Sequence record: PV340539
Origin: Escherichia phage mEp234
Reading direction: 5' to 3' (one strand)
DNA length: 40,804 bases
The notes below the pieces were generated by a model. The model was given only the letters and a program-made list of their open reading frames with translations. It did no database searches and was not told where the DNA came from. The position numbers were made by a program, and so were the translations under genes. The stretch's first letter is position 1, and each line of letters opens with the position of its first letter. Positions 2,051 through 38,544 of this stretch are shown one piece after another.

Positions 2051-2218
2051 AGAAATCCCCGCGAGTGCGAGGATTGTTATGTAATATTGGGTTTAATCAT
2101 CTATATGTTTTGTACAGAGAGGGCAAGTATCGTTTCCACCGTACTCGTGACCTGCTCCCCGTTGATTAGTACACCCCGATGTTAGTAATGTCTTCATAAG
2201 CCACATGAGGACATCCCC

Positions 2219-2482
2219 ATGAAGAAGCGTTTTTCCGACGAACAGATCATCAGTATTCTCCGCGAAGCCGAAGCTGGGGTACCCGCCCGTGAACTCTGCC
2301 GCAAGCATGCCATTTCCGATGCCACGTTTTACACCTGGCGTAAGAAGTATGGCGGTATGGAGGTGCCTGAAGTTAAGCGCCTGAAGTCGCTTGAGGAAGA
2401 GAACACCAGACTCAAGAAGCTGCTTGCCGAAGCCATGCTGGATAAAGAGGCGCTTCAGGTGGCTCTTGGGCGAAAGTACTGA
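2219..2482 (+). CDS. IS3-family transposase OrfA (HTH DNA-binding part)
   Basis: 87 aa '[46 protein letters not shown]...' typical IS3/IS407 OrfA with leucine zipper. Confidence 0.9.
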
Positions 2483-2505
2483 CGACAGACCAGAAGCGGG
2501 AAGCC

Positions 2506-3339
2506 GTGATGTTGATGTGTGATGCGACCGGTCTGTCGCAACGTCGTGCCTGCAGGCTTACAGGTTTATCCCTGTCGACCTGCCGCTATGAGGCTCACCG
2601 TCCGGCTGCTGATGCGCATTTATCAGGGCGCATCACTGAGCTGGCACTGGAGCGCAGGCGTTTTGGCTACCGTCGTATTTGGCAGTTGCTGCGCCGTGAA
2701 GGGCTTCATGTTAATCATAAGCGCGTGTACCGGCTTTATCACCTCAGTGGCCTGGGCGTAAAACGCAGAAGACGTCGTAAAGGGCTGGCAACAGAACGTC
2801 TGCCGCTGCTCCGTCCGGCGGCGCCCAATCTGACCTGGTCGATGGATTTCGTCATGGACGCACTTTCCACCGGTCGCAGGATCAAGTGTCTTACCTGCGT
2901 CGATGATTTCACAAAGGAATGCCTGACGGTCACTGTTGCCTTTGGGATTTCAGGCGTTCAGGTCACGCGTATTCTGGACAGCATTGCACTGTTTCGAGGC
3001 TATCCGGCGACGATAAGAACTGACCAGGGGCCGGAGTTCACTTGCCGTGCACTGGATCAATGGGCCTTTGAGCATGGTGTTGAGTTGCGCTTAATCCAGC
3101 CGGGCAAGCCAACGCAGAACGGATTTATTGAGAGCTTTAACGGACGATTTCGCGATGAATGTTTGAATGAGCACTGGTTCAGCGATATCGTTCATGCCAG
3201 GAAAATTATTAATGACTGGCGGCAGGATTATAACGAATGCCGCCCGCACTCCACGCTGAATTATCAGACACCGTCTGAATTTGCAGCGGGCTGGAGAAAG
3301 GGTCATTCTGAGAATGAAGATTCCGACGTTACTAACTGA
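2506..3339 (+). CDS. IS3-family transposase OrfB (DDE catalytic domain); probably expressed as OrfAB fusion by -1 frameshift in 2446-2482
   Basis: 277 aa with '...[54 protein letters not shown]...'; frame -1 relative to orfA, open from 2446. Confidence 0.9.
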
Positions 3340-3368
3340 GTGTTGTATCTAATCGTGGGGGCAGGTCA

Positions 3369-3513
3369 CAACGGCGCTGTAGTTTGTCCATTCTTTCTTT
3401 TTTGTCTGGCGATCGTAATACTGAACGCCAGCACGGATGTTGAATCCGATATTTTCCCCGGCCTGAAACTCTCTTGCGGGCTTGTTTAGTCTTACAGTAA
3501 TCGAATGTGCCAT
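3369..3513 (-). pseudogene. 5' fragment (~48 codons) of a gene translationally coupled to erf, truncated by the IS element; weakly SSB/OB-fold-like
   Basis: ATG overlaps erf stop (TAATG); 'MAHSITVRLNKPAREFQAGENIGFNIRAGVQYYDRQTKKKEWTNYSAVV' then runs into the IS inverted repeat; no continuation beyond the IS. Confidence 0.45.
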
Positions 3514-6121: not shown

Positions 6122-6505
6122 TCACCTTGCTGTCAGTTGTTTTGATTTCCTGTAGCCTGCCGCGTAAAGAGCTACATTTGGAAGACATACACCAGTTTCT
6201 GGTTGCCTATGCCCAAACTCATTCGCGTACACAATGGCCGCTCTCTCCAGATTGCGTCTGTATTCTTTCTGTTGCCAGATCACGTCCTGTGCCATGAACT
6301 TAATTGGCTTAGCGTCTTCTATGCGCTCAGGCGTTTCGTGAGTACCTTTAGCCTGAATCTGCGCTCTGCTTAGAGTAGGGCGGTGTAATACTTCTGAACT
6401 TATTGCTTCTTCGCGGGCCAGTACGCCGTTAGCTAATGCCTTTGCCTTTAAACGCTCACGACGACGAGAACGTGAATTGCCTTTGAACTGAGTTCTGCGT
6501 GTCAT
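6122..6505 (-). CDS. N: N-type transcription antiterminator, P22 gene-24-like
   Basis: Arg-rich N-terminus 'MTRRTQFKGNSRSRRRERLKAKA'; C-terminus '...LPNVALYAAGYRKSKQLTAR' recalled as matching P22 gp24; first gene after pL/nutL. Confidence 0.8.
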   Translation of the reverse strand: MTRRTQFKGNSRSRRRERLKAKALANGVLAREEAISSEVLHRPTLSRAQIQAKGTHETPERIEDAKPIKFMAQDVIWQQKEYRRNLERAAIVYANEFGHRQPETGVCLPNVALYAAGYRKSKQLTAR

Positions 6506-6685: not shown

Positions 6686-6753
6686 CGTAGATTCATCTCT
6701 GAATCGTTGTATATTCACCGCCCTGGTGAGTAGTGCGTCCTGCTGATGTGTTT

Positions 6754-6817
6754 AGTATCACCGCCAGTGGTATTTATGTCAACACCGCCAGAGATAATTT
6801 ATCACCGCAGATGGTTA
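6754..6817 (-). promoter_or_regulatory. pL promoter with operators oL1-oL2-oL3, lambda type
   Basis: oL1 'TATCACCGCCAGTGGTA' (6756-6772), oL2 'CAACACCGCCAGAGATA', oL3 'TATCACCGCAGATGGTTA'; -35 TTGACA / -10 GATACT on minus strand. Confidence 0.9.
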
Positions 6818-6965
6818 TCTGTATGTTTTTTATATAGATTTATTTTTTTGCAGGGGTGTGTGGCTTGGGAGGTGATCGAGAGATCTGAATTGCGATGTTT
6901 AGTGAGTTGTATCTATTAATTTTCAAATAAATACAATTGGTTATGTGTTTTGGGGCGAACGTGAG

Positions 6966-6993
6966 GCAAAGAAAACCCGGCGCGGTGGCCGGG
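6966..6993 (-). terminator. t-imm-like intrinsic terminator ending the cI-side leftward transcript
   Basis: Hairpin 'cccggccaccgcgccggg' + UUUUCUUUG on minus strand, directly after the acidic-protein stop; lambda-like flank. Confidence 0.7.
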
Positions 6994-7000
6994 TTGGAGA

Positions 7001-7426
7001 TTATTTTCTAGATGATGTTGGGGACCAAGGTAACGTTATAGTATCTAACACTGTGTTTTTGAACATATTTTCAAAAACTGTTTTTGTACATACATATACA
7101 TAATTTTCAAAAAACCAAGCATTTTCATTATAAAAATCCTCAGTTACTTCTTCATCGAGGTCACACTCAAATGTTAGTGTCAAGGTAGCCTCTGCCTTGA
7201 ACAATACATCCTCACCATCATCAAAATCTTTTTTATCGCGAGGGAAACCAGTTATCGATGGCTTAACTTCAATAAAGAGCCAATTTCCATCTTCATCTTT
7301 TTGAGGAACAACGTGATGCTCAGAAAATTTTAAGCTATATTTTCCGCCTTCAGAATTATCACTGTCGTCGATAAAAAGGGAAGAACCCTCGAGATCAAAT
7401 CCCTTAAAGCGAATTTTATCAAGCAT
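7001..7426 (-). CDS. Strongly acidic 141-aa protein of unknown function, third gene of the rex-slot cassette
   Basis: ATG overlaps hicB-like stop (TGATG); D/E- and aromatic-rich ('DDSDNSEGG', 'DKKDFDDGED', 'ECDLDEEVTEDFYNENAWFFENY'); track ORF 7001..7462 starts at a TTG, the ATG at 7426 is preferred. Confidence 0.6.
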   Translation of the reverse strand: MLDKIRFKGFDLEGSSLFIDDSDNSEGGKYSLKFSEHHVVPQKDEDGNWLFIEVKPSITGFPRDKKDFDDGEDVLFKAEATLTLTFECDLDEEVTEDFYNENAWFFENYVYVCTKTVFENMFKNTVLDTITLPWSPTSSRK

Positions 7427-7899
7427 CAATGTGGCACTCCGTTGTCTACTGAAACTTCCCAATAGGTCTCTTCTGTACGTCTACGGGATGAGAAGAAAGT
7501 AACTTCTCTAACATCCCTCGGTTTTTCAAAGTGGTAGTGAACCTCTTTTTTCCCATTAACTGACTCACTGACAGCCTGTTTTACATAATCGTTTAAAGTC
7601 ATATTCTTAGCTTTAGCAGCTAAATATGCTTTTTTATGCAGGGATTCACCTATCCGGATGTTAAACGAACCACTCATTGTCTTATCTGGAGATTTTCCTA
7701 TCTCTTCACAAGTGGAGAGGTAATCGTCCACGGCCTCCTCAAAGGCTGCACGGAGTTCTGCAACCGTTGCACCCTCATAAGTGACGAGATCATTTATACA
7801 TTCGAGTTTTCCATGCATCACCCCATCTTCAAATGAAATGCTGGAGCTACCATAGTAACCTTTGTATTTCATCAAGTTATTCATGATCATCAATCTCAT
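7426..7899 (-). CDS. HicB-like antitoxin-family protein with ~45-aa C-terminal extension (start ambiguous: 7899/7890/7884/7872)
   Basis: '...MKYKGYYGSSSISFEDGVMHGKLECINDLVTYEGATVAELRAAFEEAVDDYLSTCEEIGKSPDKTMSGSFNIRIGESLHKKAYLAAKAKNMTLNDYVKQAV' matches the HicB fold/RHH pattern; overlaps hicA-like 3' end. Confidence 0.7.
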   Translation of the reverse strand: MRLMIMNNLMKYKGYYGSSSISFEDGVMHGKLECINDLVTYEGATVAELRAAFEEAVDDYLSTCEEIGKSPDKTMSGSFNIRIGESLHKKAYLAAKAKNMTLNDYVKQAVSESVNGKKEVHYHFEKPRDVREVTFFSSRRRTEETYWEVSVDNGVPH

Positions 7900-8131
7900 C
7901 TAACAGCTGTTTAACTTCTTCCAAGACGTACCTTTTGAGGGTGTTTTCAGGATGAGGCTCATGAAAAATGACCAATCTATCAACACGTTGGTTGTAAAAT
8001 TTACGGCCAGAACCTCGTTTAGCATTCAAAAGCTTGAAGCCATACTGGTTCATGAGAGTAACGAACTCATCCCAAGTAAAATTTTTGGGTAAGCCGTCTA
8101 ACTTTGACTTTAGCTTTTCCTTTCTTCCCAC
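7877..8131 (-). CDS. HicA-like (YcfA-fold) toxin-family protein, GTG start
   Basis: 84 aa; '...GFKLLNAKRGSGRKFYNQRVDRLVIFHEPHPENTLKRYVLEEVKQLL' resembles the HicA motif but has GSGR where GS(N/H)H is expected; toxin-first order as in hicAB. Confidence 0.6.
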   Translation of the reverse strand: MGRKEKLKSKLDGLPKNFTWDEFVTLMNQYGFKLLNAKRGSGRKFYNQRVDRLVIFHEPHPENTLKRYVLEEVKQLLDEIDDHE

Positions 8132-8157
8132 GAAGGATACATCCTCTGTTAAAGGTA

Positions 8158-8180
8158 GTGCAACTGAAATCTAGTTGCAA
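8158..8180. promoter_or_regulatory. Imperfect palindrome GTGCAACT-n7-AGTTGCAA upstream of hicA-like start; candidate operator/promoter of the cassette
   Basis: Inverted repeat 7/8 match, ~30 bp upstream of the GTG start at 8131. Confidence 0.3.
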
Positions 8181-8291
8181 GCTATGCTATCTATAGACAA
8201 AATGTTTCATTGTTATATCAGAAGATACCCGATCTGTTTCACCTTCAACTACTATAATTTGTTATAAGCTATCAACCGGTGGAACTGCGAA

Positions 8292-8390
8292 TTAGCCGCT
8301 GGGTGTTGCGTATCCATCGATGATAAACCATGCCATAAACCCCATAGCTACGATGAACACCAAGATCGGAAACACTATACCAATTCTCAT
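8292..8390 (-). CDS. Small hydrophobic ORF (32 aa, single predicted TM helix) between cI and hicA-like
   Basis: RBS AGGGA-n7-ATG; 'MRIGIVFPILVFIVAMGFMAWFIIDGYATPSG'; below ORF-track cutoff. Confidence 0.3.
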   Translation of the reverse strand: MRIGIVFPILVFIVAMGFMAWFIIDGYATPSG

Positions 8391-8494
8391 GATTTTATCC
8401 CTGTCTACCCATGCTTCCTGGGCACCAGCGGCTCGTTACTCGGCATCACCCTTAATCCGCCGCCCCATGTGTTTGTTGTGATCCGTTGCTGGCC

Positions 8495-9211
<717 letters not shown>

Positions 9212-9218
9212 TTAAATC

Positions 9219-9284
9219 TATCACCGCAAGGGATAAATATCTAACACCGTGCGTGTTGACTATTTTACCTCTAGCGGTGATAAT
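9219..9284. promoter_or_regulatory. oR3-oR2-oR1 with divergent pRM and pR, lambda type
   Basis: oR3 'TATCACCGCAAGGGATA', oR2 'TAACACCGTGCGTGTTG', oR1 'TACCTCTAGCGGTGATA' (one base differs from my recollection of lambda oR1); pR -35 TTGACT / -10 GATAAT. Confidence 0.9.
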
Positions 9285-9299
9285 GGTTGCATGTACTAA

Positions 9300-9509
<210 letters not shown>

Positions 9510-19518: not shown

Positions 19519-19705
19519 CGCGGCGGCGGCAAGTAGATTATCTATCATGTGAAATCATTTCAAATGCAACGATATCAAATGAGAATGAATCGCATTCAGG
19601 GCAGGGGGGGGGGGATCAAATCTTCAAAACCTTTGCCCCAAATGACCGCCGCCAAAGTTTGAATTTAACGCTAACCCGATTTTTTTAGTTTTAAGGTGTT
19701 GACAT
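19519..19705. other. Candidate cos/packaging-recognition region between HNH and terS; contains G11 homopolymer (19604-19614) and GC-rich inverted repeats
   Basis: Position (HNH-cos-terS in HK97-like phages); 'gcgcggcggcggcaag' ... 'gaccgccgccaaag'; no ORFs. Confidence 0.3.
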
Positions 19706-34146: not shown

Positions 34147-37100
34147 ATGGCTACAGATAAAGTGTTAAAAGGCCGCAAGGGCGGCAGCTCAAGTTCCCGA
34201 ACCCCTACCGAACAGCCTGATGATCTGCAATCTGTAGCGAAGGCAAAGATCCTCGTTGCGCTTGGGGAAGGGGAGTTTGCTGGACAGCTCACCGGGAAGG
34301 ATATCTACCTGGACGGAACAGCGCTGGAGAATGCTGACGGCTCCCAAAACTTCAGCGGGGTAACGTGGGAGTTTCGCGCGGGAACGCAGGCGCAAAAATA
34401 TATTCAGGGTATTCCCGGTACCGAAAACGAGATCAGCGTAGGAACTGAGGTATCAAGTGCCACAGCCTGGACGCGCACGTTTACCAATACGCAGCTTTCA
34501 GCAGTTCGCCTGCGTCTTAAATGGCCCTCGCTTTTCAAACAGGAAGACGACGGCGATCTGGTGGGTTACTCGGTCAATTATGCGATTGACCTGCAGACGG
34601 ACGGCGGCACATGGCAGACGGTACTCAATACCAGCGTGACCGGCAAAACGACGTCTGGTTATGAGCGCAGCCACCGTATCGATTTACCGCAGGCTGGCAG
34701 CACATGGACAATACGTCTGCGTAAGATTACCTCTGACGCCAACAGCGCGAAGATCGGCGACACGATGATGCTGCAGAGCTTCACCGAGGTGATTGATGCC
34801 AAACTGCGCTACCCGAACACCGCGCTGCTCTACGTCGAATTCGACTCAAGCCAGTTCAACGGCTCTATTCCTCAAATTTCATGCGAACCGCGCGGCCGCG
34901 TTATCCGCGTTCCAGATACCTACGACCCTGAAACCCGCACTTATAGCGGTACATGGACCGGTGCGTTTAAGTGGGCATGGACGGATAACCCTGCGTGGAT
35001 TTTTTACGACCTGGTTGTTTCTGACCGGTTTGGCCTCGGGCACCGTTTGACCGCTGCGAATATTGATAAATGGACTCTTTATCAGGTTGCTCAGTATTGT
35101 GATCAGATGGTACCAGACGGCAAAGGGGGCAACGGTACAGAACCACGCTATACCTGCAACGTGTACATTCAGGACCGGAACGACGCCTACACAGTCCTGC
35201 GTGATTTTGCCGCTATCTTCCGTGGCATGACCTACTGGGGCGGGGATCAGATTGTGGCCCTGGCTGACATGCCGCGCGATGTTGATTACAGCTATACGCG
35301 CGCTAACGTTGTTGGCGGTCGCTTCACCTATTCGAGCAGCACCACGAAAAGCCGCTACACCACAGCGCTGGTTTCATGGTCAGATCCGGGTAACGCTTAT
35401 GCCGACGCAATGGAGCCGGTATTTGAGCAGGCGCTGGTGGCGCGATACGGCTTCAATCAGCTGGAAATGACAGCCATCGGCTGCACCAGGCAGTCAGAGG
35501 CGAACCGAAAGGGGCGCTGGGGTATTCTCACCAACAACAAGGATCGCGTTGTTTCGTTTGATGTCGGGCTGGACGGAAACATTCCGCAGCCGGGCTACAT
35601 CATCGCCGTGGCAGACGAGCTGCTTTCCGGAAAGGTTATGGGCGGCCGCATCAGCGCCGTTAACGGTCGCGTTATCAAACTTGACCGCGTAGCTGATGCA
35701 GCACCAGGTGATCGCCTTATTCTCAACCTGCCTTCCGGAGCGTCGCAGAGCAGGACCATTCAGGCCGTGAACGGGGAATCAGTCACAGTCACCACGGCAT
35801 ACAGTGAGACGCCACAGGCCGAAGCTGTTTGGGTTGTTGAATCTGACGAGCTTTACGCGCAGCAGTATCGTGTTGTCAGCGTCTCCGACAACGGTGATGG
35901 CACTTTCTCAATCACCGGCGCATGGCACGACCCGGATAAATATGCCCGCATCGATACCGGAGCCATCATTGACCAGCGGCCGGTGAGCGTGATCCCGCCT
36001 GGTAACCAGTCGCCGCCTGCGAACATCGTGATCAGCTCGTTTTCCGTGGTGCAGCAAAATATCAGCGTCGAAACGATGCGCGTGAGCTGGGACCAGGCGC
36101 AGAACGCTATCGCCTATGAAGCGCAATGGCGCCGCAACGACGGGAACTGGGTTAACGTGCCGCGCACCTCCACCACGTCATTCGACGTCCCGGGGATTTA
36201 TGCCGGGCGCTACCTGGTGCGGGTGCGCGCAATCAATGCCGCAGAAATTTCATCCGGATGGGGCTATTCAGAAGAGAAAACGCTGACGGGTAAAGTGGGC
36301 AATCCACCGAAGCCGGTTGGCTTCATCGCTTCTGAAAATGTGGTTTTCGGCATCGAGCTGAACTGGGGATTCCCGGCGAATACCGACGACACGCTGAAGA
36401 CGGAAATTCAGTACAGCCTGACCGGAACCGAGGACGATGCGATGCTGCTGGCCGATGTGCCTTATCCGCAGCGCAAATATCAGCAGATGGGCCTCAAGGC
36501 TGGGCAGATTTTCTGGTACCGCGCTCAGCTGGTGGACCGCAGCGGCAACGAATCAGGGTACACAGAATGGGTGCGAGGACAGGCCAGCATCGATGTTTCC
36601 GACATCACAGATGTGATCCTGGAGGACATGAAAGGCTCCGATACGTTCAAAGACCTGATCGAGAACGCTGTGGACAGCAATGAAAAAATTGCTGGCATGG
36701 CTGACGAAATCAAAAACCATGCCGACGAACTCGAGCAGCAGGCGAAAGACATCCAGGAAAACGCTGACGGGCTGGCCCAGGCCGAAGTGAAGATCGACGA
36801 GATTTCTGTGTCGATGGATGGCATGACGGGAGGCGTGAAGAACTCGGCAATCGCGATTATCCAGAATGGGCTGGCGCAGGTTGTCAGTCGTCGTTCCCAG
36901 ACCGCGACAAACGCAGGGAACAGCGCCAGCATTGACCGTATCGACACGACCATAGCCGACACCAGCTCGGCGGTTGCTCGCGCGCTGGTGACGCTGGATG
37001 CTTCAGCTGGTGGGAATATCTCCAACTCTACCGATCTCACTGAAACTCTGGCCGATTTCACGCAGGCATCGGCGACAAAAATTAACACCCTGAATGTTAA

Positions 37101-37602
37101 ATCTGGCGAAAACAGTGCCGCGATAAATGTCAACGCACAGGCTATCGCAGATGTAAACGGTAACCTAAGTGCGATGTACAACATCAAGGTTGGTGTCTCC
37201 AGCAATGGACAGTATTACGCCGCGGGGATGGGTATCGGCGTGGAGAATACGCCATCCGGCATGCAGTCGCAGGTTATCTTCCTGGCTGATCGCTTCGCCG
37301 TCACCACGGCGGCCGGAAATAGCGTGGCTTTGCCGTTCGTGATCCAGAACGGGCAGACATTCATCCGGGCCAGTTTCATCCAGGACGGCACTATCAGCAA
37401 CGCAAAGATTGGTAATTTTATCCAGTCGAACAATTATGTTGCTGGTTCTGCTGGCTGGAAGCTTGATAAAGGGGGGACGTTTGAGAACTACGGTTCGACT
37501 GCTGGTGAGGGAGCCATGAAACTGACAAATCAGACGATCAGCGTCAAAGATGGCAGTAATGTTCTTAGGGTGCAGGTTGGCCGATTAACGGGAGTATTCT
37601 GA
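34147..37602 (+). CDS. J: Central tail fibre / host specificity protein J-like
   Basis: 1151 aa; conserved J-like N-terminal two-thirds with fibronectin-type region; divergent C-terminus. Confidence 0.9.
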   Translation: MATDKVLKGRKGGSSSSRTPTEQPDDLQSVAKAKILVALGEGEFAGQLTGKDIYLDGTALENADGSQNFSGVTWEFRAGTQAQKYIQGIPGTENEISVGTEVSSATAWTRTFTNTQLSAVRLRLKWPSLFKQEDDGDLVGYSVNYAIDLQTDGGTWQTVLNTSVTGKTTSGYERSHRIDLPQAGSTWTIRLRKITSDANSAKIGDTMMLQSFTEVIDAKLRYPNTALLYVEFDSSQFNGSIPQISCEPRGRVIRVPDTYDPETRTYSGTWTGAFKWAWTDNPAWIFYDLVVSDRFGLGHRLTAANIDKWTLYQVAQYCDQMVPDGKGGNGTEPRYTCNVYIQDRNDAYTVLRDFAAIFRGMTYWGGDQIVALADMPRDVDYSYTRANVVGGRFTYSSSTTKSRYTTALVSWSDPGNAYADAMEPVFEQALVARYGFNQLEMTAIGCTRQSEANRKGRWGILTNNKDRVVSFDVGLDGNIPQPGYIIAVADELLSGKVMGGRISAVNGRVIKLDRVADAAPGDRLILNLPSGASQSRTIQAVNGESVTVTTAYSETPQAEAVWVVESDELYAQQYRVVSVSDNGDGTFSITGAWHDPDKYARIDTGAIIDQRPVSVIPPGNQSPPANIVISSFSVVQQNISVETMRVSWDQAQNAIAYEAQWRRNDGNWVNVPRTSTTSFDVPGIYAGRYLVRVRAINAAEISSGWGYSEEKTLTGKVGNPPKPVGFIASENVVFGIELNWGFPANTDDTLKTEIQYSLTGTEDDAMLLADVPYPQRKYQQMGLKAGQIFWYRAQLVDRSGNESGYTEWVRGQASIDVSDITDVILEDMKGSDTFKDLIENAVDSNEKIAGMADEIKNHADELEQQAKDIQENADGLAQAEVKIDEISVSMDGMTGGVKNSAIAIIQNGLAQVVSRRSQTATNAGNSASIDRIDTTIADTSSAVARALVTLDASAGGNISNSTDLTETLADFTQASATKINTLNVKSGENSAAINVNAQAIADVNGNLSAMYNIKVGVSSNGQYYAAGMGIGVENTPSGMQSQVIFLADRFAVTTAAGNSVALPFVIQNGQTFIRASFIQDGTISNAKIGNFIQSNNYVAGSAGWKLDKGGTFENYGSTAGEGAMKLTNQTISVKDGSNVLRVQVGRLTGVF

Positions 37603-37603
37603 A

Positions 37604-37906
37604 ATGGCTTATGGAATACAGACCTGGGATGCTTCAGGAAAACCCAACAACTATGGCATCAAACCCGTTTCCGTCGTTGGGCGAATACAGCTGGCTGCCG
37701 GGCAAACCTCCGGCAGCTGGTCTTTTACGGTGCCCTCAGGAATGAAAGTTGGTTTTGTTCTTTCACTTGATGAAGGAGGTAACAGCGTAGGGCGGCGCAT
37801 TGTCGCGTCAGGGAGCACAATAACCGTAAGCGCTGCATCTTCTGTAGGTCTGGGTAATTATCCGGCCTCAAAGTGTGAAGTGGTCGTTTTCATGGAGAAA
37901 GCATAA
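37604..37906 (+). CDS. Hypothetical protein (100 aa) downstream of J
   Basis: ORF tightly coupled to J stop. Confidence 0.5.
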   Translation: MAYGIQTWDASGKPNNYGIKPVSVVGRIQLAAGQTSGSWSFTVPSGMKVGFVLSLDEGGNSVGRRIVASGSTITVSAASSVGLGNYPASKCEVVVFMEKA

Positions 37907-38544
37907 TGGCCGAATTTGGCGCGATGATATTAATGGACAACGGGAACCCATTTGTAACGCCCCAGTCAACGCCTTTTTGTCTTTACGGCAAGTACACTTT
38001 CAACTCCTCTGCTAATGGCAGTTCGCAGCAGGTTGCTCAGAATATTGCATTAAATGCTGACTACCCTGTGATGGTATTTATCAGGACCACAAATACCGCC
38101 CAGCCCACGCCAGTAATATCTTACCGGAACGGCGGAAATATATATGTCGCGGGGGTTAATCCCTATAACCAGAGCTTCACGTTAACCGCATATATTTTTG
38201 CCATATTTCCCCAGACGTTACCGAAATGGGGGATGGCCATCTGGGATTCGAGCGGGAAGCTGGTACTCACTAATGAGTCCCGCGTGCTGTCAGACTTGCA
38301 GACAATCGGAACGCCTGGAGCAAACGGCGGGATTAACATTGACCAGACGCTTGATGGTTCATGGGCAGTGGCTCCATCAAGGCTGGGGCAAGTGAACAGA
38401 AACGACGCTTACTCATCTTGTAGGTATTCAGGCACAAGTACAAGAATAAACGCCGGTACAGCCGCAAATACACCTGGCGGTGCTGGAGGGGTGATAAATA
38501 ATGGAATTATCCTGACAGCAATTAAAACAGACGCCTATGATTGA
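37906..38544 (+). CDS. Hypothetical protein (212 aa) downstream of J; shares a short 'WD(A/S)SGK' segment with the preceding ORF
   Basis: ATGA-coupled to the 100-aa ORF. Confidence 0.5.
   Translation: MAEFGAMILMDNGNPFVTPQSTPFCLYGKYTFNSSANGSSQQVAQNIALNADYPVMVFIRTTNTAQPTPVISYRNGGNIYVAGVNPYNQSFTLTAYIFAIFPQTLPKWGMAIWDSSGKLVLTNESRVLSDLQTIGTPGANGGINIDQTLDGSWAVAPSRLGQVNRNDAYSSCRYSGTSTRINAGTAANTPGGAGGVINNGIILTAIKTDAYD

Follow-up and report, generated by a model that had tools for sequence, protein, structure and literature searches.

A candidate HicAB-type toxin-antitoxin-chaperone module in the rexAB slot of phage mEp234

What stands in the place of the exclusion genes rexA and rexB in a lambda-immunity phage that does not carry them? 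This question is raised by the immunity region of Escherichia phage mEp234, examined here in a window of 40,804 nt (the whole stretch analysed, record PV340539), to which all coordinates refer. An earlier reading of the DNA, here called the original prediction, had seen in this region a small membrane open reading frame (ORF), a HicAB-like pair and a coupled acidic protein. The cassette is probably a HicAB-type toxin-antitoxin-chaperone (TAC) module located in the rex slot between cI and N, with an anti-phage role proposed by analogy, a reading to which we give a probability of roughly 0.7.

The replacement itself is confirmed. From cI to cro, positions 8499-9468 match lambda 37231-38200 at 98% identity, and from pL/oL to Timm, positions 6715-6995 match lambda 35550-35826 at 90% identity; lambda 35827-37230 has no DNA similarity in the window (BLASTN against NC_001416). 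It follows from the two flanking matches that this part of lambda, comprising rexB, rexA and the cI-rexA spacer, has been replaced by positions 6996-8498, a 1.5-kb segment with hicA, hicB, a third gene and a yoaK-like ORF. The edges found by BLASTN, 6995 and 8499, lie nearly where the original prediction had drawn lambda-like flanks around a replacement of about 1.5 kb, and the Timm-type hairpin that it placed at the end of the cassette was recovered by a terminator scan (Table 1), inside the 90%-identical lambda stretch and at the point where lambda homology resumes; this hairpin is named Timm in record EF120460. Its four co-oriented minus-strand ORFs were also found, although overlapping start and stop codons join three genes (8 nt between hicA and hicB, 1 nt between hicB and gene 3) and not four, because the small membrane ORF overlaps no gene, with gaps of 160 nt to hicA and of about 100 nt to cI. 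The HicAB-like pair and its coupled acidic neighbour were borne out as well, the pair by Pfam (PF07927 and PF05534) and the neighbour by its isoelectric point and its 1-nt overlap.

HicA is assigned to PF07927 through residues 20-73 (1.2e-7, 32.1 bits, cut-off 27) and to PHROG 8887, annotated as toxin (2.7e-34); its orthologues are 63-90% identical, and the start position is kept as GTG or ATG across loci. HicB matches PF05534 at 1.4e-18 (66.9 bits, cut-off 21), and shows a weak match to an Arc-like/ribbon-helix-helix (RHH) PHROG. In its AlphaFold2 model residues 5-110 are folded, with a beta-sheet and helix at 5-62 and RHH-type helices at 80-92 and 97-110, and the best PDB matches of the model are the Burkholderia pseudomallei HicB structures 6G26, 6G1N and 6G1C. 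When HicA and HicB profiles were compared with PDB sequences, only chance matches appeared (coiled coils, Cas9, RPN12), which were disregarded, and no solved HicA was retrieved.

It is the third gene, here also called hicC, that indicates the class of the system. It has no match in Pfam, NCBIfam or PADLOC and a PHROG match of unknown function only, and the original prediction could not assign it to any family. This statement no longer holds at the level of structure, since the AlphaFold2 model (predicted local distance difference test, pLDDT, 79; predicted template modelling score 0.73) consists of four long antiparallel strands and, after them, a long helix, and the top 18 Foldseek matches in the PDB are all Mycobacterium tuberculosis Rv1957 or SecB of E. 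coli or Haemophilus influenzae (best match E 1.2e-5, template modelling score 0.65-0.70). The predicted fold is thus that of SecB, and the closest one is the M. tuberculosis TAC chaperone Rv1957, solved in complex with a chaperone-addiction (ChAD) peptide (5MTW). From this model we infer that gene 3 encodes the putative TAC chaperone of the cassette, and a SecB fold in this position makes the cassette a probable member of an established class, the TAC modules (PMC5105189, PMC3581621).

Taking into account that TAC antitoxins bear variable C-terminal ChAD extensions (Bordes et al. 2016, PMC5105189), the end of HicB is of special relevance. The PHROG 9151 HicB profile (119 positions) covers residues 1-119 of 152, and residues 118-152 have a pLDDT below 50 in the model. 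The tail, KEVHYHFEKPRDVREVTFFSSRRRTEETYWEVSVDNGVPH, contains 6 aromatic residues and 10 K, R or H among 40, and its anchors across relatives are K-x-E-h-H-h-H-h-[E/D], an aromatic cluster, a Trp about 10 residues before the end and a terminal His. It is kept only in three-gene loci: at the two-gene locus L016, HicB is 132 aa long and tailless, and no third gene lies beside it. Thus, the tail is a candidate ChAD element, and its start is close to that of the experimentally validated ChAD of Mmet-HicB, which spans residues 119-159 (PMC5105189). In addition, all TAC HicBs are of RHH type, TACs have an overlap of a few nt between the genes of antitoxin and chaperone (Sala 2013, PMC3581621), and the order toxin, antitoxin, chaperone has been described for TACs (PMC3581621); both the RHH-type HicB and the overlap of a few nt are found in mEp234. 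The traits of a TAC are in this way gathered in the cassette, namely co-oriented toxin, antitoxin and chaperone genes with 8-nt and 1-nt overlaps, a third protein with a predicted SecB fold, and an antitoxin with a variable, predicted unstructured C-terminal extension which is absent from the two-component homologue.

The trio recurs elsewhere. HicA (81-93 aa), HicB (148-158 aa) and a gene 3 relative follow one another in this order in three Klebsiella loci, in Pantoea (L006), in three loci of unidentified Enterobacterales, in Enterobacter (L011 and L012, chaperone 26% identical), in E. coli (L013 and L014) and in a metagenome, and among the loci compared every HicB of 148-158 aa has a gene 3 relative next to it downstream. 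Moreover, hicA and hicB lie directly upstream and on the same strand in 31 of 31 IMG/VR viral loci with a gene 3 relative (26-100% identity). This synteny, kept in Klebsiella, Pantoea, Enterobacter and the IMG/VR contigs, indicates that the genes are real and not chance ORFs; and the co-inheritance in all 31 loci, together with a ChAD-like tail missing from the two-gene relative, argues that the cassette is best read as a HicAB TAC. In most loci the trio is flanked immediately upstream by the gene of a CI-like S24 repressor and on its downstream side by N, and these repressors are of several different immunities. In E. coli AR_0118 an identical cassette lies in a Rac-like prophage beside unrelated helix-turn-helix repressors.

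Two diverged versions of the trio were also observed. One, from lambdoid prophages of E. coli (positions 2760-3896 of L013 and L014), is located in the nin region by hok/gef, upstream of DUF968-RusA-Q, and is present in 192 collection blocks; the other, from Enterobacter prophages (positions 2759-3881 of L011 and L012), is located downstream of CI-like repressors and is present in more than 1000.

A word-indexed search of 5.8 billion proteins returned 12 relatives of gene 3, and a HMMER profile search of 1.84 billion representatives about 60, nearly all of 130-155 aa. This family, mostly from lambdoid prophages of Enterobacterales, is coupled to HicAB at every locus examined. A comparison of 26 unique trios gave mean pairwise identities of 0.64 (HicB core), 0.31 (tail) and 0.37 (chaperone), so that tail and chaperone are the fastest-diverging parts of the unit, with correlated divergence, an observation of supportive value.

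These data bear on the proposal that gene 3, even if SecB-like, is not the chaperone of the HicB tail and acts instead as a second antitoxin, as an acidic nucleic-acid mimic on HicA or as a stand-alone binder of phage proteins, the tail having another role. Such an arrangement is quite improbable. SecB is itself acidic; the best structural match of gene 3 is a TAC chaperone complexed with a ChAD peptide; its presence goes with that of the HicB tail; both diverge in a correlated manner beyond what the HicB core accounts for; and the 1-nt overlap with hicB is the antitoxin-chaperone coupling described for TACs.

A different doubt concerns the toxin. In canonical HicA proteins a catalytic His presumably follows G-S directly (G-S-H, as in H24 of B. 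pseudomallei HicA and in E. coli HicA), an equivalence of position that we assume. In mEp234 the corresponding motif is G40-S41-G42-R43-K44-F45 (7994-8011), which reads GSRRKF or GSRRRF in relatives, while H57, P59, H60 and P61 are invariant (H57-H60, 7952-7963); the active site may therefore be non-canonical. The lack of the His after G-S, a Pfam score barely over the cut-off, and the rarity of the exact cassette (found in 6 of 5426 complete E. coli genomes, and 100% identical in phages mEp234, HK106 and mEp506) might suggest a decaying or inert passenger, with a catalytically dead HicA and ORFs hitch-hiking with the immunity region. However, the missing His was rejected as a sign of decay, because G-S-x-R-K/R-F is common to the whole HicA subfamily, the two-gene system included, and is thus a trait of the lineage. 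The three proteins keep their full length and invariant residues from genus to genus, gene 3 at 26-100% identity; trios of this kind are frequent, the HicB of Enterobacter being present in more than 1000 collection blocks; and the promoter/operator element is strictly conserved. Taken together, this makes decay hardly credible.

This element lies upstream of hicA and comprises a -35 sequence TTGCAA (8180-8175), a 17-nt spacer and a -10 sequence TACCTT (8157-8152). It is overlapped by an inverted repeat, TGCAACT-N7-AGTTGCA (8179-8159), which occurs only once in the window. In 15 of 15 diverse loci TTGCAACT-N7-AGTTGC(A) is invariant, with TAnnnT after it at the distance where a -10 hexamer would be expected; the sequence farther upstream cannot be aligned. 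A consensus sigma-70 promoter scan called no site within the cassette, and the element upstream of hicA fell below its threshold, so that its promoter function is deduced from conservation alone. It would be a putative autoregulated promoter, P_hic, overlapped by an operator for the RHH protein HicB. Transcription from cI may contribute as well: a terminator scan found no terminator-like site on the minus strand from 8494 to 7001, which makes read-through from pRM also likely, as with rexAB in lambda, and to judge from the sequence transcripts of cI from pRM and pRE can enter the cassette.

Table 1. Features of the mEp234 immunity region discussed in the text (window coordinates).
Feature	Position	Strand	Description and basis
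hicA	7877-8131	minus	84-aa HicA-family toxin; GTG start, AGAGGAT Shine-Dalgarno; Pfam PF07927, PHROG 8887
hicB	7426-7884	minus	152-aa antitoxin: N-terminal HicB domain, ribbon-helix-helix domain, C-terminal tail; PF05534
HicB tail	about 7429-7548 (about residues 113-152)	minus	Candidate ChAD; predicted disordered
Gene 3 (hicC)	7001-7426	minus	141-aa acidic protein (pI 4.36), predicted SecB fold; AlphaFold2 and Foldseek; ATG shares 1 nt with hicB stop (TGATG)
Promoter-like/operator-like element	8152-8180	minus	Upstream of hicA; conservation across loci
YoaK-family ORF	8292-8390	minus	32-aa small membrane protein; NCBIfam NF033821, E 4.9e-15, 54.9 bits (cut-off 32)
cI	8495-9208	minus	Lambda-type repressor, 237 aa; upstream gene of the cassette; ORF list
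Timm-type intrinsic terminator	6974-6995 (6995..6974)	minus	8 stem pairs, 6 G-C, then T-run; closes the cI-cassette transcription unit
pL	6782..6754	minus	Promoter scan

The system with which the cassette can best be compared by gene content is the Mmet-TAC of Methylomonas methanica MC09 (HicA-HicB-SecB^TA, PMC5105189), which has the same gene order, with the chaperone gene last, and a HicB whose C-terminal ChAD extension begins near residue 119, and which has been shown experimentally to be chaperone-addicted (Bordes et al. 2016, PMC5105189). The two differ in that the Mmet chaperone is a SecB homologue by sequence, whereas that of mEp234 is recognisable by fold only, and in that Mmet-TAC belongs to a methanotroph chromosome, with no phage role tested, and the mEp234 cassette to a prophage immunity region. 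By location, the closest known system is HigBAC of E. coli NT1F31, a TAC directly downstream of cI in a lambdoid prophage, in the rexAB slot of lambda, that acts as an anti-phage sensor (Mets et al. 2024, 10.1101/2024.02.24.581848). In this system HigC binds aromatic residues of the ChAD, and the major tail protein of lambda, gpV, draws HigC off by competition, which triggers abortive infection (10.1101/2024.02.24.581848). Although both modules occupy the same slot, HigBAC is built on HigB and HigA, a RelE-fold toxin and a helix-turn-helix antitoxin, and not on HicA and HicB, and its ChAD has about 100 residues with four aromatic motifs, in contrast to about 40 residues for the mEp234 tail. 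The M. tuberculosis HigBA1-Rv1957 system (5MTW) has a sequence identity of 13% and a toxin of another family; the HigA1 ChAD ends in a Val-Ala ClpXP degron, and CmdA also carries a ClpXP degron, whereas the mEp234 tail ends in Pro-His. CmdA is part of CmdTAC, or PD-T4-9 (Vassallo 2022, PMC9519451; PMC11618068), a TAC of prophages or islands with a SecB-like chaperone that causes abortive infection in E. coli through a translation block; its toxin is an mRNA ADP-ribosyltransferase, its locus is another one, and it defends against T-even phages. Finally, RexAB of lambda, a lysogen-expressed abortive infection system in which RexB is the membrane effector and RexA the sensor, shares with the cassette the slot and the transcription unit from cI to Timm and has no homology to it, being a positional and functional analogue only.

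By analogy with these systems, a lysogen-expressed exclusion system, as had been proposed, is the most plausible function of the cassette. In the lysogen, two sources would supply transcripts of the operon, its own promoter, autoregulated by HicB, and read-through from pRM; HicC, the probably tetrameric chaperone, would bind the HicB tail and keep HicB soluble or stable, so that HicA would be neutralised. An infecting phage would then supply an abundant protein with a comparable pattern of aromatic residues, such as a capsid or tail subunit, and this protein would compete for the chaperone. After the loss of the chaperone, HicB would be misfolded or degraded, and free HicA would cleave RNA, stopping translation and aborting the infection. 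The cassette would in this manner functionally replace RexAB as the lysogen-expressed exclusion system of the prophage.

It might be argued that this is a genuine HicAB-chaperone toxin-antitoxin (TA) system that serves prophage addiction or stabilisation, or the host stress response, instead of phage exclusion. Stabilisation of mobile elements is the classical role of TA modules, the M. tuberculosis TAC has been described as stress-responsive (PMC3581621), and the prophage HicAB2 of Pseudomonas putida, though a functional TA, contributes neither to phage defence nor to prophage stability (PMC12894663). However, the interval between cI and N is a hotspot for defence genes (Owen et al., PMC8585504, citing Degnan et al. 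2007), and the slot that the trio prefers also houses the defence systems RexAB, BstA and HigBAC, the last a TAC (PMC8585504, 10.1101/2024.02.24.581848). Of the TACs tested for defence against phage, 3 of 3 (MqsRAC, CmdTAC and HigBAC) show it, and the fast divergence of tail and chaperone fits a sensor engaged in an arms race better than a housekeeping stabiliser. A role restricted to stabilisation or stress is, consequently, unlikely.

Nevertheless, several points weigh against an anti-phage TAC. None of the four proteins, the YoaK-like one, HicA, HicB and the gene 3 product, matches PADLOC-DB v2 at E<=1, a result that also suits a stabilising role, as does the P. putida precedent, which counts here too. 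Toxicity, chaperone dependence or a phage phenotype of the cassette are not reported in the searchable literature. The RNase activity of HicA is assumed, with GSGRKF in place of the G-S-H that we take as canonical. The HicB tail finishes in ...GVPH and has no Ala-Ala or Val-Ala ClpX degron. The association of tail and chaperone divergence (Spearman 0.66, partial r 0.55 given the core, 26 trios) is uncorrected for phylogeny, and these statistics are for this reason supportive only. With regard to the chaperone, the SecB assignment rests on a structure predicted from a 10-sequence alignment. None of 54 gene 3 family members matches the Pfam SecB family (PF02556) at E<=1, no PDB sequence is found by gene 3 either as a single sequence or as profiles of 10 and 54 sequences, and when the 54-member profile is aligned by hhalign with E. 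coli SecB the probability is 0.2%. Since these Pfam, PDB profile and hhalign searches find no SecB, sequence homology of the third protein to SecB is not detected, and the assignment is made at the level of the fold only.

The small membrane ORF, which the original prediction had counted as a cassette member, is indeed present and belongs to the YoaK family. As an operon member it was rejected, because 160 nt and the conserved promoter/operator stand between it and hicA, and because most related loci do without it: a YoaK homologue precedes hicA in just some of them (eight, Pantoea L006 among these). On these grounds it is a neighbour of the cassette, outside the conserved three-gene unit. A yoaK-like gene accompanies the cassette in the Rac-like prophage of E. 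coli AR_0118 and in Pantoea L006, there after a DUF333 gene.

The surroundings of the slot were also inspected. The 51 bp directly downstream of cI (8444-8494) are 98-100% identical in HK97, HK225, Lambdavirus PDP110P1 and about 52 E. coli genomes without the cassette; this sequence looks like a conserved recombination boundary flanking a variable slot. On the other side, the N antiterminator (6122-6505, minus strand) is of HK97 type and not of lambda type, and pL/oL and cI/cro are lambda-like; an HK97-type N beside a lambda-like pL/oL points to a mosaic joint between oL and N.

As for the window as a whole, it presents mEp234 in prophage order, with the attP core at position 3 (mEp234 21098) and the cos junction at 19705/19706; these positions suggest an integrated copy, or one permuted at attP, and not a genome in virion order. 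It is 100% identical to JQ182732 except for a 1222-bp insertion of the IS3 family at 2148-3369 (between JQ182732 23242 and 23243), which contains a transposase ORF at 2506-3339 on the plus strand (NF033516, 3.5e-71) and interrupts the HK97 gp40-like gene mEp234_028.

These immunity regions were reportedly first sequenced by Degnan et al. in 2007. In EF120460, the mEp234 immunity region deposited in GenBank in 2007, hicA, hicB, a hypothetical gene and Timm are annotated in place of rex; PV340542 (mEp506, 2025) labels the identical gene 3 as 'HicC chaperone', and RefSeq as hypothetical. It had been stated beforehand that database hits to an already characterised system would count against the exclusion proposal. 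No paper characterising the hicA/hicB/gene 3 cassette of mEp234, HK106 or mEp506 was found in literature searches, but the TAC class, HigBAC in the same slot, EF120460 and the 'HicC chaperone' label all exist. Thus, the cassette is a probable HicAB-armed TAC in the rex slot, of a kind already known and with a sequence public since 2007, and it opens no new category of biology. Its distinctive point, a modest one, is a predicted chaperone recognisable only by structure.

Beyond this, it is tempting to propose, in a tentative way and with doubt as to whether all of it will hold, that gene 3 may define a sequence-divergent clade of the SecB fold working as a rapidly evolving sensor of phage proteins, that the cI-N slot may be a general dock for interchangeable TAC sensors, and that, among TACs armed with HicA, the cassette may be the first to act against phages, perhaps with a HicA active site of non-canonical type (GSGRKF, H57/H60). 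If the mechanism outlined above is true, mEp234, HK106 and mEp506 would offer a natural and tractable lambda-immunity background with a HicA-armed TAC in the place of RexAB, in which two exclusion strategies could be compared in the same transcription unit and the phage protein sensed by HicC could be sought. SecB-like TAC chaperones can escape sequence profiles, and since SecB profiles are blind to the gene 3 clade, surveys started from sequence homology to SecB could have missed it. With such profile-invisible chaperones, and with related trios common in the prophages of Enterobacter, Klebsiella and E. coli, the present counts of TACs and of prophage defence genes may be underestimates.

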